A DNA stretch of 32,000 nucleotides from a virus. Shown here piece after piece: positions 21,024 to 29,390 of the stretch. Location: positions 57,104 to 89,103 of the IMG/VR virus record IMGVR_UViG_3300028666_000023; one strand, written 5' to 3'. How positions within the stretch are numbered: position 1 is the stretch's first letter; each line of letters opens with the position of its first letter. The position numbers and the translations under genes were made by a program. A model generated the notes under the pieces. It worked only from the letters and a program-made list of their open reading frames with translations, had not been told where the DNA came from and searched no databases.

Positions 21024-21084
21024 TGCAAGCGGGATGCCTTGTACTTCTTCGCATCCCATTCTTCAGTCGCAGTGCGTGCTTGCA
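21024..21084 (-). terminator. Nested inverted repeats just downstream of the giant repeat gene (possible terminator/processing structure)
   Basis: Outer pair TGCAAGC (21024-21030) / GCTTGCA (21078-21084); inner pair GGGATGC (21031-21037) / GCATCCC (21051-21057) with a 13-nt loop. It sits in the 129-nt gap after the stop at 21096. No clear U-tract, so the terminator function is uncertain. Confidence 0.35.
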
Positions 21085-21095
21085 GAACGGGAGAG

Positions 21096-24000
21096 CTACT
21101 CATCCCCTTCTTCTCCCTCTCCAGAATTGCCACGTACGACAGTGGGGACTGGGGACAAACGGGACGCTCCGACGAGCGTCATGGTGATCGGCGCGGGCGC
21201 TGAGGTGGCGGTGGGCGTCGAGGGGGCGAGAGGGAAGCGCGTCGCTGCGCGCGCTCCAGCTTGAACCATCGGAGGCGTGGCAACAGGCAGCGTTACGCTG
21301 CTGCCGCCCGCGCGTACGACGAGGGAGAAACGCTGCGGCGCGTGCGATCGCCCGTAGCCGAGCGGCAGCGGCACCGGTGGCGGAGGAGTCGGCGGGTTCC
21401 ACTGCTGGTAGACGGAGTCCGACGGAGACGTGATGGTCTCGAACAAGAAGCGCAGAGCGGCGACGCGGCGAGAGATCGCATCGCTGATGGCAGTGATGCT
21501 TTCCGCGACGGAGCGCGAGATGCTACCCGTGTGCGTCACGGCGTCGGTGGGAGAGGCCACCACTTCGGGGATGATGCGAGCTCCTACGAAGGCGCGCACT
21601 ACAACGTCGCTCGACGCTGCAACGGTCTCGTTCAGGAAGCGCAGTGCGCCGTAGCTTCCGGAGATGGCGTCGGTGGGCGATGTGACACTCTCCGAGAGCG
21701 TGCGCTGTGCGGCACGCGTACGAGAGACGGCGTCCGAGATGGAGACGCTCTCCGTCATGGAGCGCGAGGCAACAGCCGCGCGGGAGGCGGCATCAGAAGG
21801 AGCGGCGATCGCGTCGCTGATGTTGCGACTCCACTGCAGCGCCTTGGCCACGGAGTCCGACGGCGCGGTCATGCTCTCCGCGAGCGTGCGGAAGAGTCCG
21901 TGCTGCCGCGTGAGCGCGTCGGTCGGAGCGGCGATCGAATCGCTGATGGTCCTGTCACCGGTGAAGGCGCGCGCCACGGCGTCGGAGACCGAGACGCTCT
22001 CTGGGATGGTCGCAACGAAGGCAACGCGCCTCGAGATCGCATCGGAGGGAGCGGAGACCGCCTCAGCGACCGCGCGGGAGAAGCCAACGAGACGTGAGAT
22101 TGCGTCACTCGGCGCGGTCACCGACTCGGCGAGGGTGCGGTGGACTACAACCTGGCGGGCAACTGCATCCGAGATGGCGACTGCTTCCGCGAGGACTCGA
22201 GCGACGATCGCCAGGCGAGCAACCGCATCACTCGGCGCAACAACACTGTCCGAGATAGAACGAGAGAAACCGACCACATCACTGGGGGAGTCCGACGGCG
22301 TCGTGATCGACTCGGTGAGCGCGCGGTGGCCCACGAAGAGACGAGCGATCGCATCGCTCGGGTTGGTGATGGACTCCGTCAGCGCACGGCTCCCGACGAA
22401 TGCGCGCGCGGCGCTGTCCGAGGGAGAAGTAATGGACTCCGTGAGGGACCGAGTCGCCCCATACAACCGAGACGCCGCATCCGAAGGAGCTGCAATGCTT
22501 TCGGAAGTAGAACGAGAAGCGGCGAGGATGCGGGTGAGCCCGTCGCTGGGTGCGAGGATGCTGTCGCTGATGCTCTTCGCGTAGTCGTGCGCGTGGAAGA
22601 CGGAATCTGAGGGGGAGGTGATGCTCTCGCTGACGGGGCGGAGGGCAGCGAAAGAACGCGCCACCGCATCACTCGGCGCCGTGATCGACTCGGTGATGTT
22701 CCCGGCGTTGCCGTGCGTGATGGCGTCAGAGGGAGAGGGGACACTCTCCGCAAGCGCGCGGGTGTAGGCGACGAGGCGATCGATGGCATCGCTCGGGGCG
22801 CTGACGCTCTCCGAGAGAGCGCGGCTTCCAACGATCGCCCGCGCGATTGCATCAGAGATAGAGATGCTCTCGCTGACGGGGCGCGCTCCCGTAAAGGCTC
22901 GGGCAACGGCGTCGCTCGGTGTGACGATGCTGTCCGAGATGAGGCGGCTGACGCTGAAGAGATTCGAGACTGCGTCGGAAGGGGCGGTGATCGACTCAGC
23001 GATACTGCGCGCGCCGGCGAAGGCGCGCACAACGCCATCACTTGGCGCGGTGACACTCTCGCTGATGGAGCGGGCCCAGGCGACCGCGCGCGCAACGGCA
23101 TCCGTGGGCGCCGAGATGCTCTCGTTGACGCTCCTCGCGCCGATGAAGGCGCGGGTCAAGGCATCGCTCGGAGCGGTGATGGATTCGCTGACGCTCTTGG
23201 AGAAGGCTGCTGCGTGTGACACCGAGTCCGATGGTGCGGTTATTGAGTCGGCGATCGAGCGAGCCACCACCGTCGCACGTGCCACGGCATCACTCGGGGC
23301 GACGATCGACTCTGAGACCGCTCGCTGCGAGGCAAAGGCTCGGGCCACTGCGTCAGACGGCGCAATGATGGAGTCTGCGATGGAGCGGGAGGCGACAAGG
23401 GCGCGCGTGAGCGCATCACTGGGGAGGACAACCGATTCAGAAACAGAACGTGCATCCGCGATCGCGCGTGTGAGCGCATCCGAAGGAGCGGTGATGCTCT
23501 CAGCGAGAGAGCGTGCGCCGATGAAGCTTCGAGCGATGGCATCCGAAGGGAGAACAATGGAATCGGAGATCGAGCGTGCTTGACCGCGCGTGGCTGCGAC
23601 GGAGTCACTCGGAGCGGTGATCGAGTCGGCTATGGAGCGAGCTCCCACAAAGGCGCGGGCTACCGCATCGGTCGGTGCGATGACCGAGTCGGCGATGGAG
23701 CGCTGCACGACCGCGAGGCGAGAGACGGCGTCGGTAGGTGCGACGATGGAGTCGGCAATCGTGCGTGCATCAACAGTAGAACGAGCCACCGCATCGGAGG
23801 GGTTCGTCACGGATTCGCTCAGCGCACGAACGGGAGCGAAGATACGGGAGACGGCATCACTCAGGGCCGTGATGGACTCACTGGTGGAACGGGCGCCGAT
23901 GAAGGCCCGCGCGATGGCGTCGCTGGGGGCGGTGATGGATTCGGCGATCGCTCGGATGCGAGCAACGACGCGCGCAACGGCATCCGTGGGCGCGACAACC

Positions 24001-28757: not shown

Positions 28758-29287
28758 TTCGAGCCTCCGTCCTGCTTCGACTTCTTGTCGATGCGGAAGT
28801 GTCCGTGAAGGTGTTTCGCGTGGTCGTCGCTGCTCGCGGGCGCCATGTAATTGGCGACGAGCTTGTCGACCTCTTCGGGATCGATGTGCGTGCCCGACGC
28901 TGCATGCGGCGCGAGCATCGATCGCATCAGCGCTTCGTCCGGTCCGTCGTCGTGCACTTCGAACTTCGAGAGCCACGCGCGCTCCGCGTGGTGCGGCATC
29001 GTGTGCTCCGACAAGTACATGGCGACGGCCTCTTTGCGCGTCAGCATGCGGCCGCCTTCGGGGCGGCACTTGTCGTGGATGATCTTGGCGCAAATCTGCG
29101 CCTCGGTCAGCTGAATCTCCGTGTGCGTGCTCCCGTTCGGAGCGTCCTTGGTCACCTTCATCAGGTAACCGGCACCACGCGTCATCGGCTTCGCCTTGCC
29201 AGCGGCCAGATCGACTGGGGTGACCGTGACGTCGCTGGGAACCGGCTCCCAGTCGTAGAACTTGCTGTGGTGGGCGACGATCCGCAT
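28754..29287 (-). CDS. Hypothetical His-rich protein (177 aa), first gene after the terminator
   Basis: Track ORF 28754..29344 trimmed to ATG 29287 (GAGG ~8 nt upstream). MRIVAHHSKFYDWEPVPSDVTVTPVDLAAGKAKPMTRGAGYLMKVTKDAPNGSTHTEIQLTEAQICAKIIHDKCRPEGG... The start choice is less certain than for other genes. Confidence 0.65.
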   Translation of the reverse strand: MRIVAHHSKFYDWEPVPSDVTVTPVDLAAGKAKPMTRGAGYLMKVTKDAPNGSTHTEIQLTEAQICAKIIHDKCRPEGGRMLTRKEAVAMYLSEHTMPHHAERAWLSKFEVHDDGPDEALMRSMLAPHAASGTHIDPEEVDKLVANYMAPASSDDHAKHLHGHFRIDKKSKQDGGSK

Positions 29288-29363
29288 GCGTTGACCTCTG
29301 ACCGAAACTTTACCCCGTCGAGCCCAACAGGGGAAGAACGCCACGACGACAAATGCGCTGAGT

Positions 29364-29390
29364 AGCTAAAAGAAGGGCGAGCGCCCTTCT
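29364..29390 (-). terminator. Rho-independent terminator after the nucleotidyltransferase gene
   Basis: 8-bp stem AGAAGGGC (29371-29378) / GCCCTTCT (29383-29390), loop GAGC. On the minus strand the stem runs into TTTTAG (plus A4 at 29368-29371). The hairpin begins at the TGA stop (29390-29392). Confidence 0.75.

Follow-up and report, generated by a model that had tools for sequence, protein, structure and literature searches.

Mycobacteriophage Bxb1 encodes side appendages, the tail wings, in genes that lie at the end of its tail genes in the order wing base gp30, arm gp31, the 63-aa gp32 and brush gp33. Both gp31 and gp33 bind gp30, gp30 binds the tail spike, and deletion of gp30 gives a viable phage with a modest growth defect, the wing base being dispensable (PMC12646305). 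Here we describe a block of six genes, A to F, in a 32,000-nucleotide stretch of IMG/VR virus record IMGVR_UViG_3300028666_000023 (positions 57,104 to 89,103; the whole stretch is hereafter called the window). On balance we favour reading this block as a mobile and self-contained cassette for an accessory fibre or receptor-binding structure borne on the virion, which would form a second receptor-binding appendage. The closest model would be a side appendage analogous to the non-essential Bxb1 tail wings, sited at the tail tip, the neck or the head. Three of the genes (C, D and E) are paralogues belonging to a family that we call P, and the cassette recurs in hundreds of uncultured phages. The elements of the block are as follows, in window coordinates.

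29364..29390, minus strand: intrinsic-terminator-like hairpin that ends the upstream gene; the upstream limit of the unit in this genome
28754..29287, minus strand: gene A, 177 aa, His-rich, ATG start; specific to the jumbo-phage lineage
27945..28757, minus strand: gene B, 270 aa, basic N-terminus and G/S/T-rich all-beta body; candidate fibre adaptor
27086..27919, minus strand: gene C, 277 aa, jelly-roll-like in its AlphaFold2 model; first of the three P paralogues
26249..27082, minus strand: gene D, 277 aa, P paralogue, 48% identical to C and 52% to E
25457..26248, minus strand: gene E, 263 aa, P paralogue, 45% identical to C
21096..25454, minus strand: gene F, 1,452-aa repeat protein, candidate fibre; GTG start 2 nt past the stop codon of E
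25371..25430, minus strand: N-terminal motif of F, LDRKFFFSGAAVELGSTPIE, the conserved opening of the gene past the last P copy; proposed anchor or plug
24522..25283, minus strand: non-repeat domain of F, 250-270 aa, inserted past the first repeat; candidate ligand-binding domain
21366..24521, minus strand: array of about 50 copies of a 21-aa repeat in F, with regular 21-residue spacing of an xPSDA anchor; candidate fibre shaft
21024..21084, minus strand: inverted repeats past F, unsupported as a boundary element

Comparison with described systems

In Bxb1 the order of arm, small open reading frame (ORF) and protein(s) of about 270 aa parallels the order found when P occurs in small phages (arm, 73 aa, P, P, variable gene), and in both systems an accessory module borders the core tail genes or lies beyond them. 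This parallel in order and size is suggestive. The components differ, however. The Gly-rich brush gp33 is unrelated to P (hhalign probability 0.2%), A-F match no peptidase or carboxypeptidase family (Pfam, PHROGs) whereas the Bxb1 wing base is of the D-Ala-D-Ala-carboxypeptidase type, and Bxb1 lacks P, B, A and any FFDGAA-type motif. Since gp33 is unrelated to P and the window has no detectable arm gene, the block falls outside the Bxb1 wing family, and would by analogy be at best a wing-type or side-fibre-type accessory appendage.

In the Rhodobacter phages, the genes gp38-41 of RcZahn and gp11-14 of RcPescado include a member of P (31-37% identity to C, D or E) adjoining a tail-fibre-like gene. 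As here, this set is mobile, being tail-adjacent in RcZahn and displaced among replication genes in RcPescado. Unlike the block, it has a single P copy, placed past the fibre-like genes instead of ahead of them, and it lacks homologues of A, B and F; a pattern scan found no FFDGAA-type motif in it, and its genes are annotated only as hypothetical.

Modular fibres and tailspikes, such as those of the T7 gp17 type and the K1-5 and GP4 adaptors, also combine a conserved N-terminus with a hypervariable body of differing lengths, and the predicted fold of B partially resembles 8jou_a and Solidus gp83. There is no sequence homology to these systems, however, the conserved part here spans only about 20-25 residues, and tandem jelly-roll P genes are absent from the T7 gp17-type, K1-5 and GP4 systems. 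A modular phage fibre cassette is a known kind of thing, but in the databases searched no relative of P, B, A or the motif is characterised, annotated or of solved structure, and a limited literature search found no description of the cassette as such.

The six genes form a self-contained unit

The block comprises six co-directional minus-strand genes. Five have G+C contents at third codon positions (GC3) typical of coding sequence (0.75-0.82); the frame of B was outside the scoring of the GC3 filter and is backed by an identical called protein. The first-pass annotation described the genes as translationally coupled or nearly abutting, and this is borne out by the junctions: the stop codon of A overlaps the start of B as ATGA, and the gaps that follow are 25 nt (B-C), 3 nt (C-D), 0 nt (D-E, TAAATG) and 2 nt (E-F). 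A Shine-Dalgarno-like GAGG precedes A (as AGAGG), C, D and F, and GGAGG precedes B, while E has no clear match. The start of F, previously placed at 25460, is corrected to the GTG at 25454, giving 1,452 aa. The reported compositions hold: A is 7.9% His, B has 11 Lys or Arg residues within its first 50, C, D and E are 45-52% identical to one another, and F carries about 50 repeats. None of A-E matched Pfam or PHROGs, and a megablast search of the entire block against 50,697 phage records returned no match.

The proteins of the window were found on a 193,844-bp contig, and the DNA sequencing runs that contain the block sequence are exclusively rhizosphere metagenomes, so the window is a piece of an uncultured phage of jumbo size. 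In its closest relative, the 89-kb contig L003, the same six genes occur in the same order, with identities to the window of 49% (A), 70% (B), 79% (C), 79% (D) and 84% (E) and an F homologue of 381 aa. Two larger contigs, L006 (228 kb) and L070 (338 kb), carry A, B, two or three P genes and an F-like gene, at times with extra ORFs between them. In a fourth contig of 120 kb (sample ERZ1426831) the order matches by gene sizes only. In L003 and L006, the 10 kb on either side of the block yielded no homologue of any window gene outside A-F. As judged by gene content and order, then, A-F are a self-contained unit distinct from their neighbours, as the earlier annotation had put forward.

That annotation also had the block bracketed by hairpins, which applies to one end of it. 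The upstream hairpin (29364-29390) has a clean 9-bp GC-rich stem (AGAAGGGCG/CGCCCTTCT) followed by TTTT, lies directly past the stop codon of the preceding gene, and its fold stands out from that of shuffled sequence (z = -2.55; 4 of 200 shuffles folded equally well). At the downstream end, shuffled sequence folds as well as the nested inverted repeats (21024-21084; z -1.18 and -0.89), which lack a T-run and are not called by a terminator scan. Scans of L003 and L070 found no terminator-like site flanking the block. The boundaries of the unit therefore rest on the synteny breakpoints, which coincide with the ends of the block, and not on hairpins.

Some features of the relatives are of separate interest. 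In L006 a 146-aa ORF (14203-14643) lies between the orthologues of D and E and matches a PHROG annotated 'DNA endonuclease V' (E 6.5e-7); the cassette has here probably taken up a mobile nuclease gene. For the additional genes that the block contains in L006 and L070, PHROG scans found nothing other than this insert. Pairs of Pfam 'Gp80' (PF23140) genes and a DUF5659 gene are present a few kb upstream of the block in L006 (7287-9021) and L070 (5476-7546), and are absent from the window.

C, D and E belong to a large family with a predicted jelly-roll fold

A search with C returned more than 1,172 homologues in a 90%-clustered database, all labelled 'hypothetical', and a profile search gave 4,045 P clusters at 50% identity. 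Each of the best 120 matches to C is nearer to C (50-79%) than D or E are, which indicates that the three paralogues are old, separately conserved lineages. The 79% identity between D and its orthologue in L003 likewise places the triplication before the split of the two phages.

P is usually tandem. Across 59 IMG/VR viral loci there are generally two copies and at times three or four (range 1-4), and P is tandem in seven of eight contigs from metagenome-assembled genomes (MAGs), which are probably binned phage and have no host assignment. Four of these eight are about 60 kb and likely whole phages; the same scan of genome contigs found no isolate genome that carries P. Natural fusions place two copies (525-576 aa) or three copies (832 aa) in one chain (P0271, P0278, P0297, P0301, P0332, P0346 and P0385). 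The occurrence of P both in tandem and as fusions argues that the copies work in one assembly.

The AlphaFold2 model of C (predicted local distance difference test score, pLDDT, 89.4; predicted template-modelling score, pTM, 0.88) is an all-beta sandwich of the jelly-roll type. Its strong structural matches are only to uncharacterised proteins of uncultured Caudovirales (TM 0.75-0.88). Against the PDB, Foldseek returned only weak matches to single-jelly-roll capsid proteins, the best being VP2 of infectious bursal disease virus (E 4.3e-4, TM 0.14-0.21), and a P profile search of PDB sequences returned nothing. Birnavirus VP2 and the coat of satellite panicum mosaic virus, the best such matches (E 4e-4), share an all-beta sandwich or jelly-roll topology with the model of C, but their TM scores are only 0.14-0.21, their probabilities are 0.5-0.7 and they have no sequence relation to P. 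In contrast to single-jelly-roll capsid viruses, the carriers of P are tailed phages that encode a terminase and a portal, with an HK97-type major capsid protein (MCP) identified elsewhere in the genome. Seven polar residues are invariant in P: D106, R107, H110, Q122, R130, E142 and Y158.

Two further assignments for P were considered. P is not the capsid protein of the small phages that carry it, in which an Mx8-type HK97 MCP lies downstream. A correspondence with the head spikes GhsA/GhsB of RcGTA was provisionally set aside on the account given in the Rhodobacter phage paper, which ties GhsA/GhsB only to RcapMu, RcWaterboi and RcapNL.

The gene past the last P copy has a conserved opening and a variable body

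F consists of one 21-aa repeat, a non-repeat insert of 250-270 aa, about 50 more 21-aa repeats and a Pro-rich C-terminal tail. The repeat consensus is about RSIAESITAPSDAVARAFVGA, and the Gly content of the protein is 5.4%. Tandem Repeats Finder detected no repeats in the gene, so that they are visible at the protein level only, which suggests that they are old. F matches only Pfam DUF6651 and PHROGs of unknown function (phrog_7913), and a PDB sequence search gave nothing meaningful. The insert is absent from the L003 orthologue and has no match in any locus compared; its sole match is a weak one to a 'minor tail protein' of Rhodococcus phage Jflix2 (E 5e-3). Both the insert and the C-terminal tail are unique to the window among the loci compared.

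The start of F is, in contrast to this variable body, conserved. The gene past the last P copy usually opens with a motif approximating FFDGAAxELGxxP, of which MATRRFFDGAQIEIGSLPIE and KRFFDGAAVELGLLPAE are further examples. Six-frame translations of 66 loci and the window were scanned with the strict pattern [FLY][FLY]DGA[AQ]xE[LIV]GxxP, which has 30 occurrences, in 30 loci, all on the strand of P and directly 3' of it, and none elsewhere. The copy in the window is one position off the strict pattern and was recognised by eye.

The bodies that follow the motif are unrelated between loci, often rich in repeats, with lengths of 174 to about 1,450 aa; a protein of this kind in MW202738 carries the annotation 'alginate lyase'. 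Even among close relatives, the 381-aa homologue in L003 corresponds to proteins of 240 aa and >2,080 aa in L006 and to a 1,401-aa protein with different repeats in L070. An N-terminal segment is thus kept across unrelated phages while the distal part is hypervariable among close relatives, as in modular fibres. A short conserved N-terminus with a variable body is the classic signature of exchangeable receptor-binding proteins.

Genes A and B are specific to the jumbo lineage

A has 30 homologous clusters, all hypothetical, and no match in Pfam, PHROGs or PDB sequences. Its orthologues are 49% (L003), 46% (L006) and 37% (L070) identical, and A lies directly upstream of B in every locus checked. 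B is the most conserved protein of the block, with 526 homologues, of which the best 120 are 62-87% identical and all hypothetical; G, S and T make up 38% of its residues. In the comparison of loci it occurs in the jumbo lineage only. A tblastn search of phage genomes gave no match to B, hhalign found no relation to the P or wing-arm families, and PDB searches by sequence and by profile returned nothing meaningful.

Foldseek comparison of the AlphaFold2 model of B gave three weak or partial matches. The first is to 8jou_a, from the podophage GP4 fibre and fibre-tail adaptor (E 0.016, probability 0.99, 119 columns, root-mean-square deviation 8.1, query pLDDT 68.5); the title of 8jou covers fibre and adaptor alike, and chain a may be either molecule. 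The others are to the HFTV1 tail chain 9h4p_BD (probability 1.0, 102 columns, root-mean-square deviation 3.2) and to the tailspike Solidus gp83 (probability 0.96). The modelled likeness of B to fibre and tailspike adaptors is a weak one, a lead rather than a result.

The cassette occurs in varied genomic contexts

In small podophage contigs resembling Mx8 and Brucella Tb, the gene order is TerL, portal, the cassette (a phrog_644 gene of about 140 aa, an ORF of about 73 aa, P, P and a variable gene), genes of 112 aa and 344 aa, and the MCP gene, with an SU10-type adaptor further along. The phrog_644 protein is homologous to chain Ra of PDB 9d93, the 'Tail wing arm, gp31' of Bxb1 (E 1.2e-12). 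A wing-arm homologue is also present in L042, in L006 (just upstream of A), in Rctr197k (near P) and in others.

Elsewhere the cassette is placed differently. It is directly past the MCP gene in MW202795. In RcZahn, P (gp40) closes the tail module, past gp33, which has a hub-like gene transfer agent (GTA) TIM-barrel domain, and past the tail-fibre-like gp38 and gp39, and lysis genes then follow; gp38 has a Phage-tail-repeat (PTR) domain and matches tail-fibre PHROGs. The same cassette, as gp11-14, lies among replication genes in 22 RcPescado-type phages, where it starts with a tail-fibre-like gene. The first-pass annotation considered the distance of the block from the putative tail genes unusual if the block is part of the tail, and this argument loses its force, as the cassette in different phages follows the portal or capsid gene, closes the tail module or lies within a replication module. 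Because the cassette moves between contexts, its position is weak evidence for where its products attach.

The 111-kb contig L049 bears directly on that distance. At positions 1-18259 it has four P copies in one co-directional array with homologues (about 50% identity) of two further proteins of the window:

6679-7335: 218-aa protein
2631-6839, minus strand: 1402-aa protein

This array links the two 'structural' regions of the window, and indicates that the 14-kb separation between them is lineage-specific and not a feature of the system. The array in L049 also holds a 1399-aa protein, a 246-aa ORF and a 1293-aa protein. The 246-aa ORF, which lies ahead of P, looks glycosyltransferase-like by eye (DDDD motif) and has no PHROG match. 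The large genes nearby in L007 and L049 are unannotated.

Proposed mechanism and alternative explanations

The case for a virion-borne accessory cassette draws together the synteny of the unit, the tandem and fused P genes, the conserved motif with its variable body, the virion gene context and the arm homology in relatives. It further draws on the partial fold matches of B to the attachment regions of fibres and tailspikes, and on the L049 array with its homologues of putative structural proteins. We propose that the paralogues C, D and E would co-assemble into a jelly-roll hub or socket, into which the N-terminal motif of F would plug, the invariant residues of P being the candidate site. 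The approximately 50 repeats of F would form a long shaft, and its inserted domain and Pro-rich tail may contact the host surface. B, possibly with A, would anchor the assembly on the particle as an adaptor specific to the lineage, a role that in small phages would fall to the wing arm resembling Bxb1 gp31. A broader proposal, which we hold more tentatively, is that a hetero-oligomeric socket of tandem P proteins captures a universal N-terminal plug on otherwise unrelated fibres. This would constitute a receptor-binding protein exchange system across podo-, sipho- and jumbo-type phages of many hosts, carried on a position-hopping cassette and hidden from Pfam, PHROG and PDB annotation.

Several observations weigh against a fibre cassette. 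No wing-arm homologue was found in the 32-kb window (tblastn, E <= 1), and no RNA sequencing run with the block sequence was found among those searched. P has no solved structural relative, its sole likeness in the PDB being to jelly-roll capsid proteins at TM of about 0.2, and its invariant polar residues could mark a catalytic rather than a binding site. The model of B is mediocre (pLDDT 68.5), with matches at E >= 0.016. The proposed contact between P and the motif of F is inferred from gene adjacency and co-conservation, and the components of the cassette are known here from genes rather than from virions. Finally, the placement between portal and capsid genes in podophages fits a location on the head equally well.

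That last point leads to an alternative that we consider unlikely but worth weighing, in which the products are head-associated: P would serve as cement or decoration on the capsid or form a collar at a vertex or the neck, with F as a head fibre or whisker. Podophages such as BPP-1 and epsilon15 are known to have cement proteins with a jelly-roll fold. At least five distinct types of podophage contig have the cassette between the portal gene and the scaffold or MCP genes, MW202795 has it past the MCP gene, the C-terminal domains of RcZahn gp38 and RcPescado gp11 match PHROGs labelled 'head decoration', and the capsid likeness of P in the PDB points the same way. The first gene of the small-phage cassette is, however, homologous to a tail-tip component, the Bxb1 wing arm; the RcZahn cassette comes past the tail hub genes and ahead of the lysis genes; the partial matches of B are to tail-attached fibre adaptors; and position says little about a cassette that is mobile between contexts. 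The suggestion in the earlier annotation of a separate appendage is upheld in part: the fibre-type architecture of F and the occurrence of P beside tail-fibre-like and wing-arm genes support an appendage, which could be attached to head, neck or tail.

We find it improbable that the block is instead an integral part of the tail or baseplate of a jumbo phage, split from the other tail genes by rearrangement and forming no separate appendage. The four P copies of L049, in an array with homologues of the 218-aa and 1402-aa proteins, would be expected from such an origin, and the unannotated large neighbours in L007 and L049 could be baseplate proteins. Yet the cassette is found in podophage- and siphophage-type contigs of 40-60 kb with unrelated sets of virion genes and at varied positions, which is unexpected for a core baseplate part. 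P has between 1 and 4 copies, just four of the eight P-carrying MAG contigs are likely whole phages of about 60 kb, the scan of genome contigs found no isolate genome with P, and the Bxb1 analogue is dispensable.

A non-virion role, with P as an enzyme or chaperone for the variable downstream protein or with products that act in or on the infected cell (surface modification or exclusion), is very improbable: it could accommodate the retention of the invariant polar residues across paralogues 43-48% identical to C, the His-rich and possibly metal-binding A, the RcPescado cassette among replication genes and the glycosyltransferase-like ORF of L049, but searches of Pfam, PHROGs and PDB profiles matched no enzymatic family, the cassette is repeatedly found within clusters of head or tail morphogenesis genes (gene context that also disfavours the non-virion structure entertained in the first-pass annotation), the island in RcPescado, which opens with a tail-fibre-like gene, is the cassette found next to the tail genes in RcZahn, and fused multi-copy P better fits a structural oligomer.

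Other genes of the window

The window has a G+C content of 63%, and essentially every gene is on the minus strand. The majority of the genes outside the block have no Pfam or PHROGs match. Those that could be assigned, and a tRNA, are as follows.

8272-8865, minus strand: RNase HII-like protein
10495-11268, minus strand: NT5C-type 5'-3' deoxyribonucleotidase-like protein
11636-12319, minus strand: MazG-like pyrophosphatase
13664-14968, minus strand: endolysin with a C-terminal amidase domain
17050-17125, minus strand: tRNA-Phe (GAA), between the lysis and nucleotide-metabolism region and the small-ORF region

The RNase HII, NT5C, MazG and endolysin genes confirm a metabolic and lysis block that divides two dark 'structural' regions. 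The designation of positions 1-7335 as 'baseplate/fibre' is a putative label of the first-pass annotation. The 1402-aa protein encoded there has a single weak match, to a 'structural protein' of Salmonella phage Arash (E 7e-8, coverage 17%), and no other.

The second ORF downstream of the block (20250-20660, minus strand) encodes a CheY-like receiver-domain protein (sequence LIVDDERTILF...DVILLDLMIPHVSG), whose PHROG matches are to families of unknown function only. A stand-alone response-regulator receiver is unusual for a phage genome. Between this gene and F, the approximately 430 nt at 20661-21095 have a weak coding signal. A 129-aa ORF (20670-21059) does not pass the GC3 filter; a shorter, Cys-rich reading frame may start at its Met32 and could encode a zinc ribbon. 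An Rfam scan of window positions 20000-30500 found nothing.

Implications

Should P prove to be an enzyme or a capsid cement, it would still rank among the larger phage protein families that await characterisation, one whose fold is predicted confidently and which has no relative of solved structure. If the reading as a fibre cassette is correct, P and its partner motif would represent a widespread system, absent from database annotation, by which phages dock exchangeable fibres. They would also allow a block of dark genes that recurs in environmental and jumbo phage genomes to be annotated. The gene directly past the P copies would flag a candidate host-range determinant, and the conserved plug would offer a natural junction at which to study swaps of receptor-binding modules. 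The idea of a 'tail wing', described in Bxb1, would then extend from mycobacteriophages to a far broader set of phages.

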